Source: Nitrosovibrio sp. Nv4 (GTDB lineage: Bacteria; Pseudomonadota; Gammaproteobacteria; Burkholderiales; Nitrosomonadaceae). Taken from it: 54,575 nucleotides of DNA. Below the pieces are notes generated by a model. That model saw only the letters and a list, made by a program, of their open reading frames with translations, was not told the origin of the DNA and ran no database searches. The stretch covers positions 1 through 54,575 of the forward strand of contig CAMDAX010000001.1 in the NCBI GenBank assembly GCA_945888885.1, read 5' to 3'. Position numbers and translations under genes: made by a program. Of this stretch, positions 5,073-36,368 are shown piece by piece. How positions within the stretch are numbered: the stretch's first letter is position 1; the number at the start of each line of letters is the position of its first letter.

Positions 5073-5076
5073 CAGA

Positions 5077-6783: not shown

Positions 6784-6869
6784 TTTCGGCAGAAGCTCTA
6801 TGAAAACTCAATTAAATAACTTCAGGTATCGAGAATCATCATGTAACTCCATGATCTTAAGTTATTCGG

Positions 6870-8168: not shown

Positions 8169-8267
8169 ACATTGCTCCCATGATTATGCTACCGCGCTTC
8201 AGTCCATAACATATTTTTACATTATGGCACTTTCCTACAATAAAATTTGATCTGAATCAACAACCAT

Positions 8268-10511: not shown

Positions 10512-10614
10512 TGTCGCAATATTAACGGATGTAGTTTGCGGGTGATCCAGGGAAATTTGGCCATGAACGCGCATGAATAAAATAATATTGTTTTAAACAA
10601 ACCAAGAAAACTTC

Positions 10615-11799: not shown

Positions 11800-11833
11800 C
11801 ACAAGTATTTTCCACAAACAGGAATGGAAAGAC

Positions 11834-13468: not shown

Positions 13469-13570
13469 CACTAGGGAGGCAGTTCCGGTTTCGCTGATTG
13501 TTGCAGCATACGAACATCAGCGGGATCGGGCTAAAAATGCCAAATGAAACACAACGTATAAATTCACTCC

Positions 13571-15067
13571 ATGCCTCTTACCCCATCACGCTCCGATCTT
13601 AGTGTTCTGTTCATTACATCCGAAGTCCACCCTCTTAACAAAACCGGCGGTCTGGGTGATGTTAGTGCAGCCCTTCCGGCGGCGCTGCGGCAACTAGGAG
13701 TAGACGTACGCCTGCTGATTCCCGGCTATCCACAAGTGCTGGCAGGACTTAAATACAAGCGCAAAGTGACGGAGCTTGCTGGCCTATCGCAATTTCCACC
13801 AGCCGCGCTGCTATCCGCCAAACTGCCGGTAAGTGCATCCGTAGACGTTCCCGTATTCATCATTGACTGCCCCGGACTCTACCGGCGTGAAGGTGGTCCA
13901 TACATGGACGTGGCCGGACGTGACTGGCCGGATAATGCACTGCGTTTCGGTCTGCTCGCAAAAATCGGAGCAATTCTGGCATGTGACGCCAGTCCGCTCG
14001 CCTGGCGTCCGCAGGTGGTCCACTGCAACGACTGGCAAAGCGGCCTCACGCCAGCATATCTGCATTTTTATCGGGGAATAAAAGCAGCATCTCTGATGGC
14101 CATACATAACCTCGCTTTTCAGGGCATATTTCCACCCGGCACCATAACCCAGCTGGGGTTACCTATCTCCAGCTTCGACATCAACGGTGTTGAATACCAC
14201 GGGAGAATGTCATTTCTCAAGGCCGGGCTCTATTATGCCGATCACATCGTCAGCGTCAGCCCCACCTATGCCAGGGAAATCCAAACAGCACCACTGGGTT
14301 TTGGTTTTCAAGGCTTGCTGGCAGGACGCCGCAAACATCTCAACGGTATTATCAATGGCATCGATGCCGTTGAATGGGATCCCGCTACCGATCCCTGTCT
14401 TGTACGCAATTACACTGCTAACAAACTTGCTGCCAAGACTGCCAATAAACGTGCATTGCAACAGGCGCTGGGATTAACGGTAGATCCGGATATTTTATTT
14501 TTTGGCGCAGTAGGCCGCTTTACTCAACAAAAAGGTTACGACCTGCTGCTGCAGGTCGCGCCGCAATTGACCAAGATTCCCGCACAACTGGTCGTTCTAG
14601 GTAGCGGTGAAGCGGCGCTGCAACAGCAGATGACGATGTTGGCAAAAACTTACCCAGGGAAAATCGCTGTGCGCATCGGTTTTGACGAAACGCTATCGCA
14701 CTTGATCGAGGCAGGCGCCGATAGCTTTCTGATGCCATCACGCTTTGAACCTTGTGGTTTGAACCAGATGTACAGCCAACGCTACGGTACGCCACCACTG
14801 GTGCACGCCACTGGCGGTCTGCTCGACACGGTGGTGGACTGCACCCCGGCAACGCTCGCGGACGGAAGTGCCAGCGGTTTTCTATTCCATACCATGACCC
14901 CTGGTCATTTTCTCGCTGCCATCCGGCGCGTCGCTATCATCTACCACGACAAACCAACCTGGCGCCGTTTGCAGAAAAATGGTATGGCTAAAGATTTCAG
15001 TTGGCACCCCAGCGCTGCTGCCTACCGAGAAATATACTTGGCGCTGCTATCCCGTCTATCGAAATAA
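13571..15067 (+). CDS. glgA: Glycogen synthase (ADP-glucose type, GT5)
   Basis: 498 aa with SEVHPLNKTGGLGDV (the KTGGL motif) and PSRFEPCGLNQMY. Confidence 0.93.
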   Translation: MPLTPSRSDLSVLFITSEVHPLNKTGGLGDVSAALPAALRQLGVDVRLLIPGYPQVLAGLKYKRKVTELAGLSQFPPAALLSAKLPVSASVDVPVFIIDCPGLYRREGGPYMDVAGRDWPDNALRFGLLAKIGAILACDASPLAWRPQVVHCNDWQSGLTPAYLHFYRGIKAASLMAIHNLAFQGIFPPGTITQLGLPISSFDINGVEYHGRMSFLKAGLYYADHIVSVSPTYAREIQTAPLGFGFQGLLAGRRKHLNGIINGIDAVEWDPATDPCLVRNYTANKLAAKTANKRALQQALGLTVDPDILFFGAVGRFTQQKGYDLLLQVAPQLTKIPAQLVVLGSGEAALQQQMTMLAKTYPGKIAVRIGFDETLSHLIEAGADSFLMPSRFEPCGLNQMYSQRYGTPPLVHATGGLLDTVVDCTPATLADGSASGFLFHTMTPGHFLAAIRRVAIIYHDKPTWRRLQKNGMAKDFSWHPSAAAYREIYLALLSRLSK

Positions 15068-15131
15068 AGACATGCCAACTCGATTGCACCAAAACTAAAA
15101 CGAAAAGTGTAGCCCTCCTCTGATGATCACC

Positions 15132-17687
15132 TCATAGCCACACCATCATGCCCATTTCCAGCGGATGCGTCAGTAGCGGTTGATATGGATAAATGCGGAT
15201 GTAATATTCCAGTTTACCGCACAATTCCGGGGCAAGATTCAGTTTAAACAGATGCTCGCCCGTTTCCATCATGCCGCTGGACTCAAACCTGAAATGCTTG
15301 AAATCGCACAGCTTGCTCTTCTTTAACTGACGGCACATCAACAGTTCCACTATCACATCTTCAGGCTGTAAGCCATTCAGTCTTACGGCGATACTGAAAT
15401 CTACCACATCGCCAAAATTGATGCGTTTGCTCGGGGTATCCAGTCGGCGCAGCGTCACCCCACCCCACATATTTCTCACATTGGCCTTCCAGGCAGCAAC
15501 TCTCTTGGCGCCATCGAAACCGTTCTCAGTATAGAGCGCACCTTGATTGCTAGCTGGCAGATAGAAATTATTCAGGTATTCATCTAGCATGCGCATAGCA
15601 TTGTAACGCGGCAACAGTGACGCCATCGAATGCTTGGCCATTCCTACCCATTCTGGTGAGTAACCGAGTTTGTCACGATTGTAATAGAGCGGCACCACAC
15701 GATCCTGCAGAATTTCATAGAGAGTCTGACTCTCTTCTTTGTCGCGCAGTGTGGGCGGCATATCCTCTGGTCCAGGCTTGATAGCCCAGCCATTCTTGCC
15801 GTCGTAGCCCTCTCCCCACCAACCGTCGAGTACGCTCAGATTAATTGCCCCGTTGATGCCTGCCTTTATCCCTGAAGTACCGCTTGCCTCCAGTGGGTAC
15901 ACCGGGTTGTTGAGCCACACATCTACTCCTGCCACCAACCGCCGGGCAAGCCGCAGATCATAGCCTTCGATTAGCAGAAGCCGCCCTTCAAATTCTGGCA
16001 GTCGCGCGACCTGACTGATACGCCGGATCAAGTCCTGACCAGGGATATCCGCCGGATGCGCCTTGCCGGCAAAGATCAGCAGCACTGGACGTTCTTGGTC
16101 AAGAATAATTTTGCGTAACCAGTCGAGATTCTCAAATAGCAATGTAGCGCGTTTATAAGTAGCGAAACGACGGGCAAAACCGATGGTCAAAATATTTGGG
16201 TTAATTGGGTCGGTGAGCTTGAGCAATCGGTCAAGATGCGCTTCAGAGCCATGATTACGGGAATTCTGTGCGGCGAGATGGGAGTGTACGCCATAGAGCA
16301 TTTGCGATTTTAGCGACTGTCGCACGCTCCAGAATTGATGGTCAGGAATCGTCTCGATGCGCGACCAGTACTCGGTGTCGCACAGCATGTTACGCCACTC
16401 GTGACCGAGATGGCGGTCAAACAGGTCGGACCATTCCTGTGCCAAGAAAGTTGGCACATGCACACCATTGGTAATGTACCCCATCGGATTCTCTTCCGGC
16501 TCAATCTGCGGCCATAAATTCCGGCAGATGCGCGCCGATACATGCCCATGTATTTTGCTCACACCATTATGCGAGCGCGAGCTGTGGATGGCGAGCGTAG
16601 TCATGTTAAAGTCAGAGCTGCCGGGAGTAAGGCCCAGTGCCATGAACTCCTCACGGGCGATTCCAAGGTCACGGTAGAATCCTTCAAAATACGTCTGCAT
16701 CATATCTGCATTAAAATGATCGTGCCCTGCTGGCACTGCGGTATGAGTAGTGAACACCGTGCTCACTGCCACTGCTTCCAATGCGCTGGCAAAATCCAGA
16801 CCCTGCTGCACCAGATTACGCATGCGTTCCAGCATCATGAACGCAGCATGCCCTTCGTTGATATGCCACACCGTCGGCCGCAAGCCCACCGCTTGCAATG
16901 CGCGCACACCGCCGACACCAAGTATGATTTCCTGCTCGATACGCATGACTTCATTCCCACCGTAAAGCTGATGGGTGATATCGCGATCCTGCAAAGAGTT
17001 TTCCGGCAAGTCGACATCAAGCAGATAGAGCGTCACATGACCTACCTGCGCCTGCCACACTTTTATCTCCACCTTGCGCTGCGGCAATTCCACTTCTACC
17101 CGCACCTCCGAACCATCTGCGTGCAGCGCCGGTGCCACCGGCAAATCTTCGAAATCAGAATCGGTGTAGGTAACTTGTTGGTTACCCTGGGTATCGATAG
17201 TCTGGAAGAAATAGCCCTGACGGTAGAGCAGGCCGACTCCGACAAAAGGTAGATGTAGATCACTTGCTGCCTTGCAGTGGTCACCAGCCAAGATGCCAAG
17301 GCCACCAGAATAAATCGGAAAACTTTCATGAAAACCAAATTCGAAGCAAAAATATGCCACTTGATCATGTGGACGCAGGCCGTTGGTGCCGTTGTCCCGT
17401 AATTCCTCGGAATGATAAGAATCGTAAGATGATAAAATGCTGTTGTAATTAGCTAGGAATACTTGATCCTCCGCCGCTTTCAGTAGCAGAGACTCATCCA
17501 GGCGCTTGAGAAAAGCTTTAGGGTTATGCCCCACTGCCCCCCATAAACCAGGATCCAGACGGGAAAACAGTGAGCGTGTGGATCGATCCCAGCTGTACCA
17601 GAGATTATTGGCCAACTCCTCCAGACGCACCAGACGGCGGGGAATTTTTGGATTGACGGCAATGGTGAATACAGTACCGGAGGACAT
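15132..17687 (-). CDS. glgP: Alpha-glucan phosphorylase (GT35, alpha-glucan-family type)
   Basis: EASGTSGIKAGINGAINLSVLDGWW carries the PLP-Lys motif. The N-terminus reads NLWYSWD. The ATG at 17687 is preceded by aaggagag 6 nt upstream, so it is preferred over the ORF-track start at 17717. Confidence 0.9.
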   Translation of the reverse strand: MSSGTVFTIAVNPKIPRRLVRLEELANNLWYSWDRSTRSLFSRLDPGLWGAVGHNPKAFLKRLDESLLLKAAEDQVFLANYNSILSSYDSYHSEELRDNGTNGLRPHDQVAYFCFEFGFHESFPIYSGGLGILAGDHCKAASDLHLPFVGVGLLYRQGYFFQTIDTQGNQQVTYTDSDFEDLPVAPALHADGSEVRVEVELPQRKVEIKVWQAQVGHVTLYLLDVDLPENSLQDRDITHQLYGGNEVMRIEQEIILGVGGVRALQAVGLRPTVWHINEGHAAFMMLERMRNLVQQGLDFASALEAVAVSTVFTTHTAVPAGHDHFNADMMQTYFEGFYRDLGIAREEFMALGLTPGSSDFNMTTLAIHSSRSHNGVSKIHGHVSARICRNLWPQIEPEENPMGYITNGVHVPTFLAQEWSDLFDRHLGHEWRNMLCDTEYWSRIETIPDHQFWSVRQSLKSQMLYGVHSHLAAQNSRNHGSEAHLDRLLKLTDPINPNILTIGFARRFATYKRATLLFENLDWLRKIILDQERPVLLIFAGKAHPADIPGQDLIRRISQVARLPEFEGRLLLIEGYDLRLARRLVAGVDVWLNNPVYPLEASGTSGIKAGINGAINLSVLDGWWGEGYDGKNGWAIKPGPEDMPPTLRDKEESQTLYEILQDRVVPLYYNRDKLGYSPEWVGMAKHSMASLLPRYNAMRMLDEYLNNFYLPASNQGALYTENGFDGAKRVAAWKANVRNMWGGVTLRRLDTPSKRINFGDVVDFSIAVRLNGLQPEDVIVELLMCRQLKKSKLCDFKHFRFESSGMMETGEHLFKLNLAPELCGKLEYYIRIYPYQPLLTHPLEMGMMVWL

Positions 17688-17904
17688 TTGTAACTCTCCT
17701 TGACAGCGGGTAGACAATAGGTGCTATGGGCACCCCTAATAATCCGGATTTCGTCACAATACTTCGTTGCTCAAAAAAACGTTTCCTTACATATCCATCA
17801 TATGCCGGGTCTACATTTTTTGTTCCCGCCTTGTTTTGTTTAGAGCTTCGAATTATTAGAGGAGTCCTTATTTCAAGCTAGAAAGTAAATTGCGCATTGC
17901 ACTA

Positions 17905-21585: not shown

Positions 21586-22644
21586 TTAAGCTACCGAGTT
21601 GGAAACCTTGTCCAAACGCTCCAGTACTTCAAATTTTCTCGTGTTCAGATCAGTGAATCCAGTAAGTATATTCAGGTGCGGCACCAGATCCGGAACCTTG
21701 ACTTTAATGACATCAAGCGAAAATTTGCTCAGGAATCTTGCTTTCTCCTTAGCCAGTTCGCGATCTGGACCAATTTCTCTGTAAGCGGCTGAAGTCATGA
21801 GCACAATGCCGCTTGGATCGATCCGGCTGTCGTCGATATTGCCTTTCAGCAGCATGGCCGCAGTTCCAATCGCATCGGAAAGGTTCGGGTCAAAAGGCCC
21901 CACAATGAAAGCGGTGTTGATGGCGTGCAGCCAGTCAAAGCCGCGCCCCACCCCCAAGACCCATTCCTTGTGGTAGGCATCTTCGATCGGCCTGTTGGTC
22001 GCACGGATCATTCGGACGTGTTTGATGTTTCCTTCGACCAACGGGATCAGATCCTTGAAAATCTGTTCCGGCATTGAGGGGTACAGCAAACGCAGCAAAC
22101 CTTGCAATTCGAGCCCGGATAAGTCTTCCTTAACTTCGGCTAGATCAACAACGCGACCGTCTTCGCCGTGCAGGATCAAGGCGTCGAGATCGGTCTCGAT
22201 ACCGCAAACAATTGGCACCACGGCGCCTTTGCCGTAAATGTTCTCAAACTGACTCTTGAGCCTTATGGCTGTGTCTCTGGCAGCATTGGTATCGTAATTG
22301 AATCCCCTGCAACCACGGTGAGCATCTCCGCGCGCGAAATGATAGGTCACAAAGATCAGGCAGTGTCTGCCACGACTGATGGCTTGCTGTGCCCATTGAT
22401 CCAGGGTTGCTTGAAAAAAGGGCCAGCCCAGATCAAACTTGCCACCCAGATTGCGAAAAGGTTGAACGATTCCGACTGCAGTTCGCGTCATGACCGGCAG
22501 GTTAAGCCGGCCATCCATGCATTTAAGCGCCGCTATTTCAGTAGGGTGCTCACCCCGGTATCTGCGGCGCTCCATGGCCAGATCAATAAAAGTTCGAGAG
22601 TGGCGTGCATTCAAATCAAGCAGGTAATCAATTCCGGTATTCAT
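21586..22644 (-). CDS. Divergent beta-carbonic-anhydrase-like protein with an unassigned ~200-aa C-terminal domain
   Basis: 352 aa. KCMDGR (C42-x-D44-x-R46), then 13 residues, then VQPFRNLGG, then H109-RG-C112. This reproduces the beta-CA CxDxR ... RN ... HxxC zinc-site pattern. A ggaga SD lies 7 nt before the ATG. Residues ~150-352 carry no motif I recognise. Confidence 0.6.
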   Translation of the reverse strand: MNTGIDYLLDLNARHSRTFIDLAMERRRYRGEHPTEIAALKCMDGRLNLPVMTRTAVGIVQPFRNLGGKFDLGWPFFQATLDQWAQQAISRGRHCLIFVTYHFARGDAHRGCRGFNYDTNAARDTAIRLKSQFENIYGKGAVVPIVCGIETDLDALILHGEDGRVVDLAEVKEDLSGLELQGLLRLLYPSMPEQIFKDLIPLVEGNIKHVRMIRATNRPIEDAYHKEWVLGVGRGFDWLHAINTAFIVGPFDPNLSDAIGTAAMLLKGNIDDSRIDPSGIVLMTSAAYREIGPDRELAKEKARFLSKFSLDVIKVKVPDLVPHLNILTGFTDLNTRKFEVLERLDKVSNSVA

Positions 22645-22670
22645 ACGCTCATCTCCATGTTGGATGCAAT

Positions 22671-22676
22671 ATTATA
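22671..22676 (-). promoter_or_regulatory. Possible -10 box (TATAAT) for the beta-CA-like gene
   Basis: The minus strand reads cgtTATAATattgcatccaacatGGAGAtgagcgtATG. The -35 region (tttctt) is poor. Confidence 0.3.
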
Positions 22677-22736
22677 ACGAAAGAAGGTCCCCAAAGAAAT
22701 GAGCTGTGGGGCACAAAAATTTCTAGTGGTTGCGCC

Positions 22737-24245
22737 CTAAGAAGATAGATTAAGTAGCCGCGACAACCATACCTCTGACGCCATTTGATTGATATGCAGC
22801 ACACTGTCCGGGAAGAACCCAAACACCAGAACCAGCAGAGCAGGAATACATAACAGGGCCAGTTCTCGCGGGGATAAATCCTGCGCCTGACTGACAACGG
22901 ATTGCGTGATCGGACCGAAAAACGCACGGCGGATATAGGACAGCATGTATGCGGCACCAAGGACTGCACCGACCAATGCAGCGATGCCAAAACTGGCGTG
23001 TGCTTTCAATGCACCGATAATCAACATTAGTTCAGCGGGGAAACCGCTGGTTCCTGGTACCCCGATACTCGCCAGGGTAAACAAGAAATAAAAACAGGTC
23101 AGCCGTGGCATCACTTTGGCCAAACCACCCAAGTGGATAATCTCGGTACTGCCCAGCCGGTGTTGAATCATGCCGGCAACCAGCATCAATGAACTGGCCA
23201 CTAAAGTGAAGTTAAGTAATTGGAAAATCGCACCCTGCAGACCCTGTATATTCAGGGACGCGATACCGACCACCACTAGGCCAACGTGACTGATACTGGC
23301 GTAAGCCAGCAGACGGCGCAGATTAGTCTGTTGTAAAGCAATCAACGCACCATATATAAGCGTAATCGTGCCCAGAATGCCCAATATCCAACTGTATTCG
23401 ACAGCCGCAGAAGGGGCTAGCGGCATGGCAAAACGCAAGATACCGTAAGCTCCCAGTTTCAGACCGGTCAGTATTGCTGTTATGTGTGCCGGGCCTTCCA
23501 TTGCAGCGGTAGGTAACCAGGTATGAAAGGGGACTAAAGGAGCTTTGACACCGAAACCAAGCAGTAACAATAAGAAAACCAATGTTTGCAAATCAGCCGC
23601 CAAAGGCGTTTCCAGCAGGACCGGCAAGCTGAAGGATAGCGCTTGGGGAATAGCGCCGCCTACTGTCACGGCGTGATTGGTCGCCAATATAACGATTGCA
23701 AATAGTAGCGACACTCCGCCAAACAGCATAAACAGCGTATATTTCATCGCAGCGCCACGGCGCTGCGAACCGATGCCCCATAAGCCGATTAAAAAGAAGA
23801 ATGGCGGCAGCGTCAGTTCCCAGAACAAAAAGAACAACACCGTATCCAGTGAGGTGAACACCCCGATGGTGATCCCTTCCAGTGCCAGCAATAAGACAAA
23901 ATGAAAGCGGGGGCTGTGTTGCACCGAATTCCATGAAGCAATGATCGCAGTCAGCGTTAACAGCGCTGACATTGGCAGAAATAACACCGAAATACCATCA
24001 ACACCGACCAGGTAATTGATATTCAGAAACGGTATCCAGGGATACTTTTCGACCAATTGAAAATCGCCGCTACCAGCATTGAATGACTGCACTATCAGCA
24101 GCGTCAGCAGCAGTTCGCAACCGGCAATTACCAGCGCGATCGCTTTGGCCAGTTTTACGGTAGGGGTGAACCCGGTGGCAATAGCACCCAGTAATGGCAA
24201 TAGAATGGCTAGACTCAGTAGCGGAAAACTTGCTTCACTCATCAT
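22737..24245 (-). CDS. Complex-I subunit M / MrpD-like proton-conducting membrane transporter (PF00361-type), paralog 3
   Basis: 502 aa and polytopic, with FWELTLPPFFFLI (TM5 Glu) and GVKAPLVPFHTWLPTAAMEGPAHITAILTGLKLGAYG (TM7 Lys / TM8). Its start overlaps the upstream gene by 11 nt (ATGATGAGTGA). Confidence 0.8.
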   Translation of the reverse strand: MMSEASFPLLSLAILLPLLGAIATGFTPTVKLAKAIALVIAGCELLLTLLIVQSFNAGSGDFQLVEKYPWIPFLNINYLVGVDGISVLFLPMSALLTLTAIIASWNSVQHSPRFHFVLLLALEGITIGVFTSLDTVLFFLFWELTLPPFFFLIGLWGIGSQRRGAAMKYTLFMLFGGVSLLFAIVILATNHAVTVGGAIPQALSFSLPVLLETPLAADLQTLVFLLLLLGFGVKAPLVPFHTWLPTAAMEGPAHITAILTGLKLGAYGILRFAMPLAPSAAVEYSWILGILGTITLIYGALIALQQTNLRRLLAYASISHVGLVVVGIASLNIQGLQGAIFQLLNFTLVASSLMLVAGMIQHRLGSTEIIHLGGLAKVMPRLTCFYFLFTLASIGVPGTSGFPAELMLIIGALKAHASFGIAALVGAVLGAAYMLSYIRRAFFGPITQSVVSQAQDLSPRELALLCIPALLVLVFGFFPDSVLHINQMASEVWLSRLLNLSS

Positions 24246-25854
24246 GCCCGCCCTTGGCCCCGATAGGCGCGGTCACGGTCACGGTGCCAGACTGTTGTGC
24301 ACCATGATGCGTGGAATTCAACACAGCCTCCAACTCGTTCACGGAGGCCACTACGTTCTGGTCTATCACATGCACCCAAGGTGACGTGTAGAAACCCGTG
24401 CCGATCAATAATGAGCAAATTATTACTGCAATAATCTGTTCCTTCTTGGCGGGTTTATGAGTACTGCTGTGATGCTGTAGAAATCGTTTCGGCGCGGCAA
24501 CAAATATCTGTTGAAAAGCACGCAGCAAAAGACCCGCAGCCAGGAGGTTTCCCAGCAATATCGCAGTGACGACCAGCCAACCGTATCTGGTAGCGGTGCC
24601 CTCAATCAGCAGATGTGCGCCGTCAAACCCTGGAGTACCAGGCATGACCATGGTGGTCAATGCAGAGATCACAAACAGAAATGCGATGGTGATGTTGGTG
24701 TCAAACAGCCCGCCCAGGCGCGGGATAATAGCAGTGCGAGTCCATTCATAAATTAGGCCGACACTGAAAAACATGCCCGCTGTCGCGAGTCCATAAGAAA
24801 CAGCTAACAGGATGGTGCCTTCCATGCCATATTCGTTTAAAGAAAAAATTCCGATAACCAGAATTCCCGTATGACTGACGACGGCGAAGGCCAGCAGACG
24901 GCGGATATTGATTTGCATCAGCGCCAGCAACGCACCGTAAATGATACTGATTAAACCCAGTGTCAGCACAAATCCAGACCATTGTTCGGCGGCCTCCGGA
25001 ATCAGCGGCAGGATAAAACGAATAGCCGCGTAAACACCCAGCTTCAGACCCACCAGAAAAATAGCCACACTTGCGACGGTGCCTTGTTCCGCCAAGGCCG
25101 GCAGCCAGCCATGAAATGGGAATATCGGCATACGAATGGCAAAACCAAAAAACAGGAGAAAGAAGATCAACGACTCATACTGTAACTGCGCATTACTGAC
25201 CTCTTTTAATTTCAGCCAGTCAAAAGTCAGTTCAGCGCCAGGTACTGCGTTCATTACGCCAACGGCGAGCAAGATGAAACCTGCCAGGGTCATCAATAAC
25301 CCGCCCAGCCAGTGTTGCAGCAATAATGCGACCACCCAATGCCGGTTTTGCCCGGTGCCGGCACGAATCGTCAACAGCACCACCGGGATCAGTTCCAGCG
25401 CGCACCATAGCCAGAACTGCATCAGATTCATCGCCGAGAACGCGCCGATCAGGATGCCTTCGTAACCCAACAAGCAGGCGATCTTAGTCCGATCAGTTGC
25501 GTGCCGGGTAATCGAGGTATAAACCAAAACCAGCAATGAAAAAATGGCCGTCAGTGGAATAAACAGGATATTGGCGCCATCAACGCCCACGCTGTAAGTA
25601 AAGCCAAGCTTGTGTATCTCTTCAGCCAATTGAATACCAGGACGATCAGCATCGAAAACGATCAGCAGGTAGAGGCTGAGCAATACCGTCGACAGTGCTC
25701 CGGCAAAACCGATACGCAATGCCACCGACGATGAGCGTGACAATAGAATAGCGGCCATCGTTGCCAGCGGGATAAGCGTCAGCATGGTCAGCAACGGGAA
25801 TGCTGCTGATTCCGACCATGCAGTAACAGCAGTAATAGTAGGAGTAATAGCCAT
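24235..25854 (-). CDS. Complex-I subunit M/N-like membrane transporter, divergent paralog 2
   Basis: 539 aa with AIRMPIFPFHGWLPALAEQGTVASVAIFLVGLKLGVYA and INIRRLLAFAVVSHTG. The TM7 position is Arg rather than Lys. There is a hydrophilic ~45-aa C-terminal tail. Confidence 0.75.
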   Translation of the reverse strand: MAITPTITAVTAWSESAAFPLLTMLTLIPLATMAAILLSRSSSVALRIGFAGALSTVLLSLYLLIVFDADRPGIQLAEEIHKLGFTYSVGVDGANILFIPLTAIFSLLVLVYTSITRHATDRTKIACLLGYEGILIGAFSAMNLMQFWLWCALELIPVVLLTIRAGTGQNRHWVVALLLQHWLGGLLMTLAGFILLAVGVMNAVPGAELTFDWLKLKEVSNAQLQYESLIFFLLFFGFAIRMPIFPFHGWLPALAEQGTVASVAIFLVGLKLGVYAAIRFILPLIPEAAEQWSGFVLTLGLISIIYGALLALMQINIRRLLAFAVVSHTGILVIGIFSLNEYGMEGTILLAVSYGLATAGMFFSVGLIYEWTRTAIIPRLGGLFDTNITIAFLFVISALTTMVMPGTPGFDGAHLLIEGTATRYGWLVVTAILLGNLLAAGLLLRAFQQIFVAAPKRFLQHHSSTHKPAKKEQIIAVIICSLLIGTGFYTSPWVHVIDQNVVASVNELEAVLNSTHHGAQQSGTVTVTAPIGAKGGHDE

Positions 25855-25862
25855 CAGGTTCT

Positions 25863-27431
25863 TCAGATCGCAGCTGCAAGCAGCAACACTGTGAATACAA
25901 ACACTACTAGGTAGCGGGGCTTCAGTATCAATTTCTCAAACTTATTGGCGGCATATCCCAGCTGGCGCCCCAGGTCGATCGCGTCTATGCTTATGCCCCG
26001 CAATACCAGCCGATCTTCAAACCAGTTGAAAATGTCCGCTGTCCATTGGAAAAGTTTTCCGGCCACACCACTGCTACGACTAAATTCGTTGGGATCATGT
26101 ACCGGCCCGGAACTCAGTATTTTTATTTCCAGTTGTGCCAGTGACGATATGGCACGGCCTGCGCGCGCAGGGGTGCCCATGATGCGATCAACGATATGGT
26201 CATCTAAATAGTCCAGGTCATGTCCCATCCCGTGAACCGGTCTTACCAAAGCCCGATCGGTAACTGGGTCCAGCCAGAAACGCTGTATTGATGCGGTATA
26301 TAGCCAGCGCAGCCCGGCAATATTGCGGGGCACTGGTTTCATCGGGTTGCCATGGACATAATGCAGAAACGACGGGGCGGTCAATACCTGATAGCAGCGC
26401 ACCACGGCATGAGCGCAAAGATGCCAGCTGGCCAGTTGCCACAAACCCAGACCGCATTCCAGAAACATCAAACCTAGTTGAGCTGATATGGCAAAACACA
26501 ACGAACTTTTGACATCAGTTTGAGTCAGTCCGACCACAAAGCTATAGATGGCGGTAATTAATCCCACAGCGACCAGCACTCCCATCGCAAATGGAGCCAT
26601 TTCAAAAAGTGGCTGCAGCAGGATTACCAGATAGACCCCGGCATGCGTCATGATTGCACCGTAGAACACCGCACTCGACGGCGTCGGCCCTTCCATCGCC
26701 CGCGCTAGCCATGGGGTGAATGGCAGTTGCGCCGATTTTGCAAAAGCGGCTGTGGCAAAACATAAGGCGATTACAGTGGCGGTAGGGGTGGTCAGTTGTT
26801 CTGTTACCGCGTTTAGATTGCCCCAGTCGATGGTCTCGGCATAAAAATAGCTCACGCCTATTCCCAGAATAAAACCGGCGTCACCGATGCGATTGGTGAC
26901 AAATGCGCGGGTTGCATTGATAGCGGCGATCGGACGGTCATAGGCAAAGACTATCAACAGATAGGAACATAGCCCGGCAATTTCCCAGCCGACAAAAGTA
27001 CCGACGGCATTACCCGATAACACCAGCAACAACATTGCCGAAGAAAACAGGCTCAGGATAAAAAAGAACCGGTAAAAACCAGGTTCTTTATGTAGATAGT
27101 TGATTGAGAAGCGAGTGACAATAACCAGCAGAATTGAAAATAGCGTCGCCAAGCCGACATTAAAACCCGTAGTGATAAAATTCATCTGTATGCTCAAGTT
27201 ATCACTGCCCAGCCACTGCCCCGCACTGAACGAGCCGGAGTTTTTGCCAAGCAAATCAGCGCCCAGCAAAGTCAAGGCCAATAGGCACGACAGGGTAATA
27301 GCCAAGGTAGCAATACTTGCAGCCATGGCTTCATCGGCCACGCCGCGAAGCATGCCGAATAGATGACCGGTACCGATAACCGCAGCTGCGATCAATGGTA
27401 GCAACGGGACCAGAACAACCAACGAATCCAT
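25863..27431 (-). CDS. dabB: DabB-like NuoL/NdhF-type membrane subunit
   Basis: 522 aa with FVGWEIAGLCSYLLI and AKSAQLPFTPWLARAMEGPTPSSAVFYGAIMTHAGVYL, both NuoL signatures. It begins 4 nt after the DabA stop. Confidence 0.75.
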   Translation of the reverse strand: MDSLVVLVPLLPLIAAAVIGTGHLFGMLRGVADEAMAASIATLAITLSCLLALTLLGADLLGKNSGSFSAGQWLGSDNLSIQMNFITTGFNVGLATLFSILLVIVTRFSINYLHKEPGFYRFFFILSLFSSAMLLLVLSGNAVGTFVGWEIAGLCSYLLIVFAYDRPIAAINATRAFVTNRIGDAGFILGIGVSYFYAETIDWGNLNAVTEQLTTPTATVIALCFATAAFAKSAQLPFTPWLARAMEGPTPSSAVFYGAIMTHAGVYLVILLQPLFEMAPFAMGVLVAVGLITAIYSFVVGLTQTDVKSSLCFAISAQLGLMFLECGLGLWQLASWHLCAHAVVRCYQVLTAPSFLHYVHGNPMKPVPRNIAGLRWLYTASIQRFWLDPVTDRALVRPVHGMGHDLDYLDDHIVDRIMGTPARAGRAISSLAQLEIKILSSGPVHDPNEFSRSSGVAGKLFQWTADIFNWFEDRLVLRGISIDAIDLGRQLGYAANKFEKLILKPRYLVVFVFTVLLLAAAI

Positions 27432-27435
27432 TGCT

Positions 27436-30400
27436 TTAAACTCCCAATTCTTCAGGCTGTTTAATCAATATGGGCGATACCGGCACCGATAGGCCCTGGT
27501 AACAATCCACCGATTTCTCACGAACCGGTAATTTTTCTACTTCCGCTTGCCATGGAACGAAACCCACGCCACGCTCAAAAACAGAAATTTCACCGCTATC
27601 AGGGTCTATCGCGCTCAACAGTACCCAGCCGCCGCCTATCAGTTCGCGCAAACTTTCTTGACGGGCATAGATCTCTCCGAGCATTGAAGTTTTCGCCTCG
27701 ACCACAATCTGCAAACGTACCGCTTCGTGAATCTCTACCATCTGTTTTGGCAGGCCGGTGCGTAAATCACTGCTGGCTCCTTCCATTACGCCGAACAGAC
27801 CGATGATGTTATGTGGGATTTTGGTGCCGCAGCCAAAACGTTCGTTGTTAATCGTGGAAAAGTAGTATTCCAGGTTAATCCCGGCACCGACAGGACCGAC
27901 GGTCAGCAGAACGTTTTCGAGCAGCTTACCTTCGGGATCCTGAGTTGCATCGTAGGAAATAAGAAAAGCGCGCCGATCGAGAAATATTCCCTGCGTGACG
28001 GAGCGTCGACCAATGACTGCTGAAGCATTGGTGGCATGTCCGTATTCGGGACGAACCTGACTCAGGTCATTGGAACGATTTGTCACATGGCGCATGGCTG
28101 CTGCTGGCGATGCCGGGTTGCGGGCTGAAATGAAACGGCGGCAGCGCTCCTGCGCGGAGGCCGCCCGAGCCTGCAAAACGCAGGCTTGACAGTCATCGAA
28201 GGCGGAGCGCAATTTTTGCGGGACGTCTTCTATGTCGTACCAGGTAACGACATCACTGGAAGTATCATGTTCGGCGCCGACAAACCAGCTATCTTCAGGA
28301 ACCACGATACCGTGCTGTACCAACAAGGCACGTACTCCGGGGCGGTTGGCCATCGCCGCAAATACGCGCGCATTCGGGCCGCCACGCCGTCCGCTGCAGG
28401 CACCACAATCATGGGCAGCTTCGTGCGGATTATTTTGACTGGTCGAACCATGCGCCATGAAACAAACGATCGGTGCAAACCCGTAGGCTAAGCCGGCATT
28501 GCGTAGGAATCCGGCAAGCCGATCAGCCTGTTCAGTGGTTGTAAAACCCAATCGTGGATGCTCAGGGGTTGCCGGGGCGGCAGTATTTGCGGCAGTAAAC
28601 AACAACTCAGTCGGTACTTTACGTAAGATATTTTGCCGCAGGTTGCCATTGGCCGCATTAAAATAGGTCGGCAGAAATGTTTTGCTTAACAGTGTAGCCA
28701 AAGTAAATGGAGCCAGTGCGTCAATAGCTGCATACGACAACAACATATTACGGCGAAGACTCTGGTTCAGCAAATAAGCGAGCCGCTTATAAAATTTGCG
28801 CCCTCTGTTATGTGCATGCAGCACTTCGTCGGTCCCCTTTCTCGGGATCTCGTCAACTTGATGAACTGGCGTCACGACCACCGGACACAGCGCCGTCGTG
28901 TGATGGTCGTCCAGCCCCTTATAATTCATCGGGATGCCAAAGAACCCGGCAGCACCCAATGTTTCAATGGCGGGATTGATTTCTTCCAGATGACGGCGAA
29001 TACTTTCTTCACGCTCATCAATACAGAATACTACTTGCGCTTGAGGACGCTTATCACGCCTGGCCCAGCGGCCGCGGTTATGATTGGCGCGCAATGCCTG
29101 AAAAAGATCTTCCCTGTAATGATACTCGTAGGCATCAAGCCAGACCTTGCTGCGCTCGGTCAGGTTGAACTCATCCAGTATTGCCAGCATCTGCTGTAGA
29201 TCTTTCTGCTGCAATTGTCGAATGTGCACAGCGTTGAGCCCCAGATGCTGGCATAAACGGAACAGACGCCAGCCATCATTGAACTCACAGTTTCCGGCAT
29301 TGGTTTCCGCCAATGGGCTGAACTGCCAGGTCCAGACCAGGTCGGCGAGCTGCTGCCAGTCAGCCTGCTTATGCCGTTCGGAACCGGTACGGCTTATCAG
29401 TGACTCCGCCGACTGGGTCAGGTATTCCGGCAGGCCGCCTTGATACAATTGGCTGCGCACCACGAATTCCGACAGGTTCTTACTGAAATAGAATTGCAGC
29501 GAACTCAGCTTGGCTTCGATTTTCCAGGTTTCGTAACAAGCCTGATCAAGCCAGAGTCTGTCCAATATCAGCCGGATAGCCAAATAATCCGCCAGATTAG
29601 GTGCCGCATCGTTCTCGGTATGGTATTGCGGATGCTGCTGCCGCCAGTTGACCAACCCCGACCAGCCCGGTAATTCCAGTGCCAGCCGCCGCAGATACCC
29701 TTCCCATTTGTCATGGGGTATTTCCAGATGGATCAGTTGCTGGATAATGGCATCGACCGCATCCTCTGGGGATTCGGCCACAATCTGCTGCCAGTTGGGC
29801 AAGTCATGCAGGAACGGGTTCGCGTCGTATTGTGCTGTCGCCCGCCAGGCTGCGTATAGACCCAAGCGGTTACGTTCGGGTAGTTGCCAGGCCGCTACGC
29901 CTTCGTCCAGAGCGGACGCACAGATGCGTATCATTTGCGGACGGACGGAGTAGAGAATATCAACCCCGCTCAATGCCAGGACAAAACCGCGTAGGGTGAT
30001 GCCATCGCCAATTTGGGTCAACAACTTGTCCAGCGAAATCGTTGCTTGTTGCCGCATGCGCTGATGCAGCGTAAGGCCGCTACTATCCGGATCACTGGAG
30101 TGAATTTTCTCCAGCCAGACTTCTGCCTGCTCCAGTGACAAATCAAGCATGTTCTCTGGGTGCAGGGCGATTTTCTCCAACCCAAGCTTGGCTGAAACAT
30201 TTTCCCACAACTGCCTAATGGCATCGCTTTGGTCGACGCTGCCTGCCAGCAACCGGCTGCGGACTTGCTCAGGTACATCAGCTTGCACTGTACCCAGCGC
30301 ATCCAATTCTTCTATTTGCCAGTTGAATTGACTGACAGTAAGGGCTTGCAGGTCAAACAGCATGGCGATGCGATAAATATCCTTGCGCGTAATCGTCAAG

Positions 30401-30720
30401 TCATTTGCCGTACAAACGAACTGCTCAGCCTGTAACTGCGGATTATGTGCGAGCGCCGCAAACAGATCCCGGTCATTAATACGCCCCTGTTGATAAAACT
30501 CACGGTTTTGTGCCTCAGGAAGATAGCCGAAAGTGCCGGTTAATGCTTCGTAGGCTGCCAGCGCCTGTTCAAACGGCAGATGCTGAAAACCATGGATAGT
30601 ATTGTGGTGGACGAAATCATGAATCGGTCCCTGCCCAGGAAGGACATGATCTAGATGATTGATCGCCGCGATGATCTGCTCGCGACTACCGGGGGATTCG
30701 GAATTTGCATGCATTGTCAA
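27436..30720 (-). CDS. dabA: DUF2309-family DabA-like protein (beta-CA-like subunit of DAB inorganic-carbon pumps)
   Basis: 1094 aa in the ORF-track numbering. The N-terminus reads [35 protein letters not shown] gives C566/D568/R570, and [24 protein letters not shown] gives H757/C772. The ORF track starts at TTG 30720; the likely ATG is at 30714. Confidence 0.85.
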   Translation of the reverse strand: [1094 protein letters not shown]

Positions 30721-30724
30721 TGTC

Positions 30725-32197
30725 CTATTGAATACGTTGACTGATCAGGCTGCTCATGTGGGACAGGGTTGCTGATGACAGGTCAATCAGCGGCTCAGGC
30801 AGCAAGCCAAACAACACAATGCCCGAAACCAGCAAACCGGCTGCCAGTAACTCGGGGGTACGCAAATCTTCGATCTCCCGCATCTGCGGCTTTACCGGGC
30901 CGGTGAATAATAGGCCGATGGTGCGGATGGCATAGGCGGAACTGATCAGGATGCTGAGGCTGAAAAACACCATCAAGCTGCCCCATTGCTGATAACCGCC
31001 GATAATGGCATGCAGCTCGGCAATAAAACCCACCGAACCCGGCAAGCCCATCGCCGCGAACAAGGTTAAAGTCATGAACAAGGCAAAACGTGGCATCACC
31101 TGAACCAGTGAGCTGTAATCCTGAATGTTACGGGTATGAGTGCGTTCATACAGTAGCCCAACCAGCAGAAACATCGCGCCCGCGATCAGTCCATGAGCGG
31201 TCATTTGCAAGACTGCACCGGTAATTCCTGTCTCATTCAAGGTTGCAATACCCAATAAGACAATACCCATGTGACTGACTGAAGAATAAGCCACCATCGC
31301 TTTAAGATCACTTTGCCGCCAAGCCAGTAAGCCACCGTAAATCATCCCGAATAACGCCAGAAAAACCAGCCATGGCTGTAATATTTGTGCGGCCTCCGGC
31401 AACATTACCACGACCCTTATCAAACCATAAGCACCCATCTTCAGCAAAATGCCGGACAGCAGAATACTGACCGGACTGGGCGCTTCGACGTGGGCCAAGG
31501 GCAGCCAGCCGTGCAGTGGGAAAATGGGCATCTTAACCCCAAAACCCATCAAAAAACCCAATAGTACCCAGACCTGCTCATCCCGTGGCATGCTTTGCGC
31601 CGCCTCACTCATCGAGGCCATCAATGAGCCGCCGTGTTCAGGCATGTAGTGACCAATCGCGAGCAAACTGATGAGCATGAAGATCGATCCGCCCATCGTA
31701 TACAACACAAAGTTGAGACTGGCTGTGTGTCGTCGCTTTCCACCCCAGCGGTCAATCAGAAAAAATAACGGGATTAAAGTCAATTCCCAGAATATATAAA
31801 ACAATGCCCAATCCTGCGCTAGAAACACGCCCAACATACCGAACTCCAACAACAGGATGCAAATATGAAAACTCTTGACACTGCTTGAAATAGTGAAAGA
31901 AGCAAGCAGTGCGATAGACGTGAGCAGAGTCGCCAGAACCACCATGGGCAATGACAGGCCGTCAACGCCCAAAGCGAAGGCGGTGCCCAGCTTTGGATTA
32001 AGCGTAAACTGTTCGCCGTATTGCAAGCCGCCATCAAGCTGATTATAAATAACGACCAGCCAGCAACTTAACAAAAAAGTGAGCCCAGCAAATAGATTAG
32101 CAAGGAACCGCATCCGATTGCTGTCCTGGCGTGACGTGAGTGCCAAGAGCAAAATCCCGACAACCGGAGTCCAGAGAAGTATGCTAAGTATCCCCAT
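30725..32197 (-). CDS. Complex-I subunit M (NuoM/NdhD)-like proton-conducting membrane transporter, paralog 1
   Basis: 490 aa with FYIFWELTLIPLFFLI and GVKMPIFPLHGWLPLAHVEAPSPVSILLSGILLKMGAYG, canonical NuoM motifs. It is the first gene of the operon, and its stop lies 4 nt before DabA. Confidence 0.82.
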   Translation of the reverse strand: MGILSILLWTPVVGILLLALTSRQDSNRMRFLANLFAGLTFLLSCWLVVIYNQLDGGLQYGEQFTLNPKLGTAFALGVDGLSLPMVVLATLLTSIALLASFTISSSVKSFHICILLLEFGMLGVFLAQDWALFYIFWELTLIPLFFLIDRWGGKRRHTASLNFVLYTMGGSIFMLISLLAIGHYMPEHGGSLMASMSEAAQSMPRDEQVWVLLGFLMGFGVKMPIFPLHGWLPLAHVEAPSPVSILLSGILLKMGAYGLIRVVVMLPEAAQILQPWLVFLALFGMIYGGLLAWRQSDLKAMVAYSSVSHMGIVLLGIATLNETGITGAVLQMTAHGLIAGAMFLLVGLLYERTHTRNIQDYSSLVQVMPRFALFMTLTLFAAMGLPGSVGFIAELHAIIGGYQQWGSLMVFFSLSILISSAYAIRTIGLLFTGPVKPQMREIEDLRTPELLAAGLLVSGIVLFGLLPEPLIDLSSATLSHMSSLISQRIQ

Positions 32198-34402: not shown

Positions 34403-35698
34403 TTAATTTGTGATGTCCACGGCGCTGCGGTCAGGGAAGGTGATATGGAAGGTTGAACCCTGCCAGGGCGTGCTGTCGACCTCGATGCGCCAGCCGTGGT
34501 AATCGCAGATACACTTGACGATGGCCAGCCCAATCCCCAGACCTTCTCCCTGGGCCGAACCCCGGAAAAAGCGCTCGAACAGGAAAGGCAGGTAAGAGGG
34601 CTCAATACCAATACCCGAATCGGAGATCGTGATTTCGCGGCCGCTGAATTTCACCCGGACAAAACCATGCGCGGTATATTGCACGGCATTGCGCAGCAGG
34701 TTCGCCAGGGCCGTGTGCAGCGCCTGCCGGTTGAGCATGAGGACGGCTTCCGGCGCCACTGCCACCTCGAAGTCGAGGTGTTTGCGCGCAATTTCCGGAC
34801 GCAAAGGCGCCACCGCATCGAACACGCATTCCGTAATTACGACCGGCTCCATCACGCCCAGCGCCTGTTCGCGCGCAAGAAACAGTAAAGCCTGCAATTG
34901 TTCGCCCATGCGGGTCGCTGCCGACTCAACCATGCCGATGCGGATGCGCACCTTTTCGGACAAATCCAGCTCGGTCGCCAACAACTCGCAACTCGTCAGA
35001 ATCGTGGTGATCGGGGTACGCATCTCATGGCTTACATTGGCCGTAAATTCCTGCTCGCGCTGCAGTATGCGTTTAATGCGGCTCTGGTAATCATCCAGTG
35101 CGCGTGCAAGCTGCGCCACTTCTTCGTCCATCCCCGGCTGTGTCAGCGTTACGCCCTGCTCGTTGCCGGGTGCAAGATGCCTTACCTTCTCGGCAAGGTC
35201 GGCGACCTCTCGGACGAGCAATCCGGCAAGCAGGTACCCCACCACCAGCGCAACGCCGACTAGCGAGATCAGCGACAGCCCGATCAGCAGCCCGAACTCC
35301 TGTTTGCGCTGCTCATGCAGCCCGATTTCATAAGCAACAAGAAACTTGGCCCCATCGAAGTGCCGTACCGCGACCCGGATTTCCTGGGGACCGCGAAATA
35401 CCATGTGACGCCTTAGGTCGAGATCCTGCAGGTAAGCGGGCAGCCGCAATTCCTCGGTGTGGTCACGCACGATATATTCTTCGAGGTTGGGGCCAGCTTG
35501 TGGAATAAAATTAGGCTGCTGACGATAGCGCTCAATGAGATGGTCCATCTCCATTTCAATGACCTGCTCGATGTGCGCCTCCTCGATATTGCCGGAAGCG
35601 ACATAAAGACTGATACCAAGGGTGCCGACGACGAATATGCAGAAGATTGCGAACGCCAGCGCAATACGCAGGCGCAGGCTGCGCTTAAGCTTGAGCAC
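34403..35698 (-). CDS. Sensor histidine kinase (two TM helices, HAMP, HisKA, HATPase)
   Basis: 431 aa with H-box VSHEMRTPITTI, N-box LLRNAVQYT, G1 DSGIGI and G2 GEGLGIGLAIV. The GTG start overlaps the response-regulator gene by 14 nt. Confidence 0.88.
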   Translation of the reverse strand: MLKLKRSLRLRIALAFAIFCIFVVGTLGISLYVASGNIEEAHIEQVIEMEMDHLIERYRQQPNFIPQAGPNLEEYIVRDHTEELRLPAYLQDLDLRRHMVFRGPQEIRVAVRHFDGAKFLVAYEIGLHEQRKQEFGLLIGLSLISLVGVALVVGYLLAGLLVREVADLAEKVRHLAPGNEQGVTLTQPGMDEEVAQLARALDDYQSRIKRILQREQEFTANVSHEMRTPITTILTSCELLATELDLSEKVRIRIGMVESAATRMGEQLQALLFLAREQALGVMEPVVITECVFDAVAPLRPEIARKHLDFEVAVAPEAVLMLNRQALHTALANLLRNAVQYTAHGFVRVKFSGREITISDSGIGIEPSYLPFLFERFFRGSAQGEGLGIGLAIVKCICDYHGWRIEVDSTPWQGSTFHITFPDRSAVDITN

Positions 35699-36368
35699 GA
35701 GTAATCAGGTGGTAGCCGAGGCCGTGGACAGTCCCGATCGGATCGTAGCCGCCAGCCCGAATCAGTGCACGGCGCAGTTCATGCATATGACTGCGCAGGG
35801 TGTCGCTGGTTTCCTGCGCCCCCCCCCACACTCCCGACTCGAGCTCTTTACGGCTGAATACGCGGCCGGGCTCGCCCATCATAAGTGCAAGCAGGCGGAT
35901 GCATTTTGGCGGCAATTTGACCCCTGAACCAGCGAAATTGATCGACATCATTTTCGGGTCGAACGTTAGATCGCCGGTTTCCAGCGTGCGGCTGGTAACT
36001 TTGCCGCCATGGCGTTTGTGCATCGCAACCAGACGTGCTTCGACTTCTCTCAGTGCAAACGGTTTGACCAGATAGTCATCGGCCCCGTGTTCGAAACCCT
36101 TCAGCTTGTCTTCCAGCGTGTCGCGCGCGGTCAACATCAGTATCGGCGTGTCCAGCTGCGCTTCCTGACGCAGCTTCCGGCACAATGTGATGCCGTCCAT
36201 ACCCGGCAAACCGAGATCAAGTAGAATGCCGTCAAAGCGCTGTGTAATCGCGAGATGCAGGCCGGTGATGCCGTCAGCCGCCGCATCGGGACTATGCCCG
36301 CAGACTTCCATAAAATCGTAGAGATTGGTAGCGATCGCTGGATCATCTTCGATTATGAGTATACGCAC
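35685..36368 (-). CDS. OmpR-family response regulator
   Basis: 227 aa. The receiver reads MRILIIEDD...ILLDLGLPGMDG...LTARD, followed by a winged-helix C-terminus (IGTVHGLGYHL). GTG start. Confidence 0.9.
   Translation of the reverse strand: MRILIIEDDPAIATNLYDFMEVCGHSPDAAADGITGLHLAITQRFDGILLDLGLPGMDGITLCRKLRQEAQLDTPILMLTARDTLEDKLKGFEHGADDYLVKPFALREVEARLVAMHKRHGGKVTSRTLETGDLTFDPKMMSINFAGSGVKLPPKCIRLLALMMGEPGRVFSRKELESGVWGGAQETSDTLRSHMHELRRALIRAGGYDPIGTVHGLGYHLITRAQA

Follow-up and report, generated by a model that had tools for sequence, protein, structure and literature searches.

A compact CsoSCA2-type carbonic anhydrase adjoins a five-gene DAB-type pump unit in Nitrosovibrio and related ammonia oxidisers

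Current models hold that an ordinary cytoplasmic carbonic anhydrase (CA) defeats a bicarbonate-accumulating pump, and the pairing of the two should waste energy. Such a pairing appears in a 54,575-nucleotide stretch of DNA from Nitrosovibrio sp. Nv4 (GenBank assembly GCA_945888885.1, the whole of contig CAMDAX010000001.1; hereafter, the window), where a gene for a CA-like protein of 352 amino acids (21586..22644, minus strand) is the last of a string of genes for DabA and antiporter-like subunits of a DAB-type pump. The locus raises the question of what kind of CA this is and what it does beside a pump. A preliminary description, made from the sequence, had taken the protein to be an orphan with a complete beta-CA zinc-site signature and, reasoning that a free CA would short-circuit the pump, had proposed a docked, regulated or vectorial (CupA-like) hydratase, a sensor or a catalytically altered paralog. 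The protein is a compact, non-carboxysomal CsoSCA2, composed of one predicted active and one defunct beta-CA domain, and is a further member of this named, experimentally untouched family.

Far from being an orphan, the protein has 1646 homologues at E <= 1e-3 in a collection of 5.8 billion proteins, and the family amounted to 535 clusters, formed at 50% identity, when cluster representatives were searched with a profile. Several homologues are named 'carboxysome shell carbonic anhydrase domain-containing protein' by NCBI, and several have a precomputed match to PF20686. The window protein itself matches this Pfam family (CsoSCA_cat) over residues 93-162 with 23.8 bits (cut-off 21.5). When compared with the Protein Data Bank (PDB) using phmmer, its only significant matches were CsoSCA chains, with E values from 6e-6 to 5e-4 (8thm at 6e-6, followed by 9skx, 2fgy, 9g4t and 9skr). 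Membership of the canonical beta-CA family PF00484 was rejected, as a Pfam scan of the protein gave no match to it at E <= 1, and assignment to the CsoSCA family was preferred.

An AlphaFold2 (AF2) model of the protein, built on an alignment of 24 homologues, had a pLDDT of 87.6 and a pTM of 0.86. Foldseek analysis of this model gave CsoSCA structures 8thm, 9g4t and 2fgy as best matches (E = 4e-14 to 5e-12, TMq 0.64-0.71, 357-390 columns), with approximately 20% sequence identity to carboxysomal CsoSCA in the alignment, and these matches span essentially the whole length of the protein, including both domains. The next match was 1ddz, a tandem-duplicated beta-CA of a red alga (E = 4e-6), while the weaker matches were mostly ordinary beta-CAs with non-significant E values of 0.02-0.1. 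Model and matches place the protein in the alpha/beta fold of beta-CAs. The beta-CA reading of the preliminary description therefore holds for the fold, with PF20686, phmmer and Foldseek all pointing to CsoSCA. Because the CsoSCA matches run full length, the approximately 130 residues in excess of a typical beta-CA, with the C-terminal part, are assigned to a second, degenerate beta-CA-like domain. Residues ~150-352, which had seemed free of motifs, are consequently the remainder of the catalytic domain and this second domain of CsoSCA type.

Three regions can be delimited in the gene, all on the minus strand. A short N-terminal region (residues 1-35; 22540..22644) forms two helices (H5-21 and H23-32, DSSP analysis of the AF2 model). 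It is followed by the catalytic beta-CA domain (residues ~36-224; 21973..22539), delimited by its invariant residues and by alignment to CsoSCA, and by the degenerate domain (residues ~225-345; 21610..21972), delimited by alignments and by the full-length Foldseek match. Inspection of residues 226-345 found no Cys or His that could serve as a zinc ligand. An active domain succeeded by a zinc-less duplicate, together with a long His-to-Cys spacing, constitutes the pseudo-dimer organisation of the CsoSCA family (formerly the epsilon class), which the protein shows. An open reading frame of 169 amino acids with a GTG start lies antisense within the gene (22168-22677, plus strand) and is most likely a spurious frame.

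Identification as a true carboxysomal CsoSCA was rejected. The protein scores 27 bits against TIGR02701, the NCBIfam equivalog of carboxysomal CsoSCA, where the cut-off is 241; it lacks the N-terminal domain of approximately 144 residues, having only ~35 residues before the catalytic domain; and neither the 54.6-kb window nor the 10-kb flanks sampled around related loci hold csoS2, cbbLS or shell genes. The missing domain has been defined as carrying a Rubisco-binding peptide and a hexamer hook (PMC9164163, PMC11086599, PMC12646314). Compared with carboxysomal CsoSCA of H. neapolitanus (2FGY/9G4T) and Cyanobium (8THM), the window CA shares the two-domain fold, the Cys/His/Cys zinc ligands, the Asp-Arg dyad and the equivalents of His397 and Asp409, but differs in its shorter loops, in the absence of the N-terminal domain and in its location outside a cso operon.

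Non-carboxysomal homologues of CsoSCA have been named 'CsoSCA2' (Sutter, Kerfeld, Scott and co-workers 2022; PMC9164163), and Pulsford et al. mention 'smaller uncharacterized non-cso isoforms' (PMC11086599). Variant 2 of CsoSCA2 is described as having ~40 N-terminal residues in two short helices, shorter loops, an active and a defunct domain and all catalytic residues, and as occurring in many phyla, including Nitrosomonas and bacteria of the candidate phyla radiation (PMC9164163). The window CA agrees with this variant in size (~350 residues), N-terminus, active-site residues, non-cso setting and distance from carboxysomal CsoSCA, and no difference was seen at protein level. One published example of CsoSCA2 is a protein of N. 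oligotropha (PMC9164163); homologues 75% identical to the window CA were found in that species and may include the published one. The published description does not include the genomic settings reported below (the end of a five-gene string, a second lineage at the same position, adjacency to ATP synthase genes) and is silent on DAB genes.

The active site was compared across 128 aligned, diverse members of the family. The motifs of the preliminary description are located where it had put them: C42, D44 and R46 within KCMDGR (nt 22521..22507), VQPFRNLGG beginning 13 residues after R46, and H109-R-G-C112 (nt 22320..22309). Its claim of a complete beta-CA zinc signature also stands, as Cys-His-Cys and the Asp-Arg pair (C42, D44, R46, H102 and C112) are kept in all 128 homologues, but the zinc histidine is H102 (codon 22341..22339) and not H109. 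In H. neapolitanus CsoSCA, zinc is bound by Cys173, His242 and Cys253 (PMC12646314). HMMER alignment to 2fgy, with numbering corrected for its 28-residue tag, pairs H102 (Y-H102-F) with His242, C112 (codon 22311..22309) with Cys253 and H109 with the non-ligand His250. H109 was kept in only 71 of the 128 homologues and is already Gln in one of 24 close homologues; it was rejected as a ligand, the assignment of H102 following from its pairing with His242 and its invariance. The approximately ten extra residues that had been placed before the histidine therefore lie between the histidine and the second cysteine (H102-x9-C112, compared with H242-x10-C253 in CsoSCA). C42-x-D-x-R corresponds to C173/D175/R177 of CsoSCA by motif, invariance and position in the fold; residue-level alignment did not cover this region, and the alignment obtained in a PDB profile search likewise stopped short of C42. 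The distance from C42 to H102 is 60 residues, near the 56 of E. coli Can, the ligands of which are C42, H98 and C101. With such canonical beta-CAs (PF00484) the window CA shares the alpha/beta fold, the sequence of C-x-D-x-R, 13 residues and an R-N motif, and a type I Cys-His-Cys site in which the Asp is held by the Arg. Unlike the canonical enzymes (H-x-x-C), its histidine and second cysteine are 10 apart, and its second domain replaces the usual dimer partner.

Two further positions in the second domain bear on catalysis and regulation. H225 (codon 21972..21970), with which the domain begins, aligns with CsoSCA His397 and is kept in 125 of the 128 homologues. His397 has been proposed as a proton shuttle, and vectorial DabA has Leu at this position (bioRxiv 10.64898/2026.05.01.722082). 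D237 (codon 21936..21934) aligns with Asp409 of H. neapolitanus CsoSCA and with Lys469 of Cyanobium CsoSCA; 90 of the 128 homologues have Asp at this position and 14 have Glu. The former enzyme is constitutively active and the latter depends on ribulose 1,5-bisphosphate (PMC11086599). No hydrophobic segment was detected in the window CA (maximum 19-residue Kyte-Doolittle mean of 1.58). Its sequence resembles that of an ordinary type-I beta-CA, soluble and unregulated, and the protein is predicted to bind zinc and to be active.

The pump genes adjacent to it form an unusual DAB unit (22737-32197, minus strand), the subunits of which were identified by profile matches. It begins with a PF00361 antiporter-like subunit of 490 residues (30725..32197), followed by a long DabA of 1094 residues (27436..30720; PF10070, 830 bits), a NuoL-like PF00361/PF00662 subunit of 522 residues in the position of DabB (25863..27431) and two NuoM-like PF00361 subunits of 539 (24235..25854) and 502 residues (22737..24245). 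DabA2 of H. neapolitanus has only ~830 residues, and four PF00361 genes are present rather than one DabB; this four-antiporter architecture is not described in two DAB structure papers. Upstream of the unit on the same strand, a SulP-family transporter (PF00916; 32976..34334) is a candidate bicarbonate transporter, and a two-component system (34403..36368) heads the island, comprising an OmpR-type response regulator (35685..36368) and a histidine kinase (34403..35698).

Alignment of the window DabA to H. neapolitanus DabA2 (PDB accession no. 9rd0) showed that it keeps C-x-D-x-R, His and Cys, and the locus therefore has two beta-CA-type zinc sites, as had been suggested. DabA, the vectorial CA of DAB/DAC pumps, is encoded four genes upstream of the CA and shares such a site with it, but is three times longer, inserts an elbow motif into DabB and has Leu at the position of H225. 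A sequence relationship between CsoSCA2 and DabA was rejected, as profile-profile comparison of the two window proteins gave an hhalign probability of 0.1%, and no PF10070 or PF00361 match was present in a Pfam scan of the CA. Neither homology nor obligate co-occurrence marks the CA as a subunit of the DAB/DAC pump.

The CA gene is separated from the last NuoM-like gene, on the same strand, by a spacer of 92 nt (22645..22736), in agreement with the distance first given. It has an ATG start with GGAG 8 nt upstream (22656..22653). A TATAAT sequence (22676..22671) with a weak -35 lies ~27 nt 5' of the start codon; it is kept in six of seven aligned spacers from the nearest-relative loci, the other (L007) having TACAAT. 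A consensus scan of the spacer and the 3' flank of the CA gene identified no sigma-70 promoter or terminator above shuffled background. The CA gene is probably co-transcribed with the pump genes, and the conserved TATAAT may be an internal promoter that gives it some pump-independent expression.

The association of CA and pump genes was assessed in a genome scan using one genome per species, in which 79 CA loci with 10-kb flanks were compared with the window proteins by tblastn. Forty-nine of these loci, from Nitrosospira, Nitrosovibrio, Nitrosomonas and relatives, encode a CA at least 70% identical to that of the window, and 47 of them have upstream DNA. The last NuoM-like gene lies directly upstream of the CA gene on the same strand in 44 of the 47, and all five pump genes are present in the order of the window in 36 of the 38 loci with at least 9.4 kb upstream. 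The supposition that the CA gene ends the DabA/antiporter-like string and accompanies the five-gene operon elsewhere is thus borne out for Nitrosomonadaceae. The five pump genes touch or overlap one another, but a spacer of 31-346 nt separates them from the CA gene. Eleven Nitrosomonas-type loci have a SulP homologue directly downstream of the CA gene on the same strand. Three loci (L023, L029 and L032; CA 74-77% identical) have no five-gene unit upstream. The last of these (contig CAYNQD010000001.1, 594 kb) is labelled 'Candidatus Saccharibacteria' and carries a Nitrosomonas-like CA beside clpB, an oddity that may be due to a binning or labelling problem or to recent transfer.

Further contigs were found by searching with the window DabA. 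Two isolates, Nitrosovibrio tenuis and Nitrosospira sp. Nsp13, have the five-gene unit and, after it in convergent orientation, a gene for a CsoSCA-family protein of 372-373 residues, at the same chromosomal site flanked by URO-D and an HD-domain gene, with RsgA also present in the Nsp13 locus. This second-lineage CA is the third gene of a response regulator/histidine kinase/CA string (L083:18230-21380 and L085:18197-21346), in which the regulator-kinase pair is the same as that heading the island of the window and the gap between kinase and CA is 48-93 nt. SbtA with a P-II partner is found near the CA gene in both species, and SulP also in Nsp13. The second-lineage CA is 43-45% identical to the window CA, while the DabA proteins are 64-65% identical. 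As two distinct CsoSCA2 lineages adjoin the same end of the same unit, there is good evidence for a selected functional association, and since the CA of N. tenuis and Nsp13 belongs to a separate, convergent transcription unit, this association needs no single transcript. The window CA is closer to proteins of Patescibacteria (57-60% identity; P0086, P0089, P0091 and P0097) than to the second ammonia-oxidiser lineage, which suggests a transfer of the gene from Patescibacteria to ammonia oxidisers or the reverse.

The unit and the CA also occur apart. Three Methylococcales contigs, two of them from Methylobacter (L081, L082 and L086), carry the five-gene unit (DabA 65-68% identical) with no CsoSCA-family gene within 10 kb. 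Conversely, 31 Patescibacteria-type loci, mostly from Patescibacteria with some bins labelled Gammaproteobacteria, encode a CA that is 47-59% identical, with no DabA or PF00361 gene in the 10-kb flanks. The Patescibacteria homologues without such neighbours are 48-60% identical to the window CA and keep all catalytic residues. The CA gene adjoins F1Fo ATP synthase genes in 14 of the 31, lying downstream on the same strand in 12. An example is L048 (4618-11071), with the CA gene directly after atpC in the order atpF-H-A-G-D-C-CA; further adjacent loci are L049, L050, L052, L058, L066, L067 and L071-L075, and another arrangement is found nearby in L051 and L076. Neither this adjacency, nor the linkage of CsoSCA2 to DAB genes, nor the second lineage at the same spot was found described in the searchable open-access literature. 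In 10 Patescibacteria-type loci, an unannotated protein of ~190-220 residues with no Pfam match is encoded beside CsoSCA2 (L068:55-726, with similar open reading frames within ~200 nt of the CA gene in L051, L059, L065-L067, L071, L072 and L078). Its motifs 'VCPDG' and 'SHWPCG' recall a C-x-D ... H-x-x-C metal site.

The best explanation of these observations is probably that the protein is a free, conventional cytoplasmic CA which is co-regulated with inorganic-carbon uptake, and not a docked or vectorial subunit. CsoSCA2 would be a soluble enzyme whose working domain is fused to a degenerate copy, with zinc held by C42, H102 and C112, D44-R46 acting as the gate dyad and H225 as the histidine for proton shuttling or bicarbonate contact. 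In Nitrosomonadaceae its gene would belong to an island for acquiring inorganic carbon, which also encodes a two-component regulator, transporters of the SulP and/or SbtA type and the five-gene, DAB-type pump that hydrates CO2. Pump and transporters would bring bicarbonate into the cytoplasm, where free reversible CA would hold bicarbonate and CO2 in rapid exchange, so that at low external inorganic carbon the supply of both cytosolic Rubisco, which needs CO2, and bicarbonate-using carboxylases could be kept up.

A free CA is favoured because H225 is retained where vectorial DabA has Leu, because D237 matches the constitutively active H. neapolitanus CsoSCA and not the Lys of the Cyanobium enzyme, because the unit and the CA each occur alone (in Methylococcales and Patescibacteria, respectively), and because the protein has no hydrophobic segment and its gene is set off by a spacer, unlike the abutting pump genes. 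On the same grounds of retained H225 and Asp237 and of separate occurrence, and because the neighbouring CA of N. tenuis and Nsp13 lies on the opposite strand, the docked, vectorial, CupA-like, sensory or catalytically altered protein imagined at first is not favoured. The link to carbon uptake is drawn from the 44 linked loci among 47, the SulP homologue in 11 loci and the second lineage. Methylobacter-type methanotrophs assimilate carbon mainly without Rubisco. The CA is found beside the unit in Rubisco autotrophs and is absent beside it in these methanotrophs, a pattern of two lineages only, which fits the proposed role in carbon supply.

Several points weigh against this reading. The PF20686 match covers residues 93-162 only, the pLDDT of the AF2 model drops to ~67-78 around both ligand loops, CsoSCA2 proteins have not been studied (PMC9164163), and no Rubisco or cso genes are present in the window. 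When expressed with an energised pump that accumulates bicarbonate, a free CA would be expected to let CO2 escape and to run down the gradient, and by simple considerations of diffusion a concentrating mechanism without carboxysomes is expensive for a small cell. The short-circuit paradox raised in the preliminary description is thus a genuine one: a Scott-laboratory review describes it as 'problematic' that cytoplasmic CA and inorganic-carbon transporters occur together (PMC10880623). Six of the 14 autotrophs there that combine CA and transporters are ammonia oxidisers, and the ways out considered are differential expression, modelling that allows low-to-moderate co-expression, and compensation for inhibition by N2O (PMC10880623). 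The position of the CA as last gene of the pump string argues against strict differential expression.

The paradox would vanish if CsoSCA2 were bound to the cytoplasmic face of the DAB complex, for example to an extra NuoM-like subunit, as a second energy-coupled or gated hydratase head, since no free CA activity would then reach the cytoplasm. This arrangement would account for the near-constant last-gene position in the Nitrosomonadaceae string and for a second CsoSCA2 lineage beside the same gene end; moreover, the closest structural relative of DabA is CsoSCA (bioRxiv 10.64898/2026.05.01.722082), so that an antiporter-like partner can be served by a fold of this type. Such docking is nevertheless unlikely, as the unit is found in Methylococcales with no CA beside it, a CA with every catalytic residue in place occurs in Patescibacteria where the unit is missing, and the CA of N. 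tenuis and Nsp13 is encoded in a different, convergent transcription unit. Moreover, the window CA has no hydrophobic segment or membrane-inserting element like the elbow/finger motif of DabA, keeps His225 where vectorial DabA has Leu, and gave nothing in profile-profile comparison with the window DabA. A bolder variant, in which CsoSCA2 would be no free enzyme but a separable CA module that attaches to membrane complexes translocating protons (the DAB unit in ammonia oxidisers, F1Fo ATP synthase in Patescibacteria) and channels protons or bicarbonate locally, is slightly more doubtful again. If true, ammonia oxidisers would have a carbon pump with two heads, and CsoSCA2 would be similar to the free-living ancestor of DabA.

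Occurrence of the same CA family downstream of two unrelated proton machines could instead reflect a local buffer, which would equilibrate CO2, bicarbonate and protons on the cytoplasmic side of proton-moving complexes, namely the DAB unit of ammonia oxidisers and the F1Fo ATP synthase of Patescibacteria, would provide or take up protons rapidly and would serve pH and proton-motive-force homeostasis rather than carbon supply. The 14 ATP-synthase-adjacent loci, 12 of them with the CA downstream on the same strand, and the four complex-I-type proton-channel subunits preceding the CA in ammonia oxidisers agree with this. The argument is one of gene adjacency alone, however; other genes flank the CA in 17 of the 31 Patescibacteria-type loci, unrelated genes often come to lie behind strongly expressed housekeeping operons, and carbon supply is indicated by the bicarbonate transporters SulP and SbtA of the ammonia-oxidiser island, so that such a role is held to be improbable. 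Pump and CA would be spatially separated if the CA were encoded in trans and packaged into the carboxysomes of relatives whose cso operon lacks csoSCA. Such operons exist: some genome bins of freshwater Nitrosospira have a cso operon in which no csoSCA was found (PMC9239080), and carboxysome loci are known to lack this gene in some cases (PMC9164163). Moreover, H. neapolitanus CsoSCA can bind shell hexamers non-specifically (PMC12646314). The window CA, however, lacks the N-terminal domain bearing the Rubisco-binding peptide and the hexamer 'hook', falls far below the TIGR02701 cut-off (27 bits versus 241) and has no cso or Rubisco genes near it in the window, which makes packaging very improbable. 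Many Nitrosomonas and Nitrosospira isolates are not known to have carboxysome genes, and such isolates could carry the operon. None were reported in strain PY1 (PMC10472526). Least probable of all is a CA-fold protein that reports CO2 or bicarbonate status to the adjacent two-component system and is not a bulk catalyst. The regulator/kinase/CA strings of N. tenuis and Nsp13, and the same regulator pair at the head of the island in the window, would suit a sensor; yet every catalytic residue, including the proton-shuttle histidine, is conserved across the 128 diverse homologues, which is the pattern of selection for catalysis, and no such regulators lie near the Patescibacteria homologues. Each of these four alternatives is contradicted by at least one observation.

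With the CA gene usually last in the pump string and a second CA lineage at the same spot, it is unlikely that CA and pump are never expressed together, a possibility raised in the 2024 review (PMC10880623), and a recognised conundrum becomes testable. The linkage also offers a first physiological handle on CsoSCA2, a widespread CA family, and sets a fold of CsoSCA type next to DabA, which is itself structurally closest to CsoSCA. Ammonia oxidisers are important in nitrification and in the release of N2O, and little is understood of how they obtain their carbon. Genetic coupling of a CA-type activity to carbon uptake or to complex-I-type antiporter subunits is a theme shared with SulP-beta-CA fusions and neighbours and with CupA/CupS of cyanobacterial NDH-1. 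The window CA has no sequence similarity to the Cup proteins; it is soluble and encoded separately, and DabA already fills the vectorial role.

Elsewhere in the window, a glycogen-metabolism cluster (3054-17717) comprises glgC, glgB and glgA together with genes for two GH57 enzymes and a glucan phosphorylase, among which pgi and a thiolase gene are interspersed; it is apparently unrelated to the carbon island.

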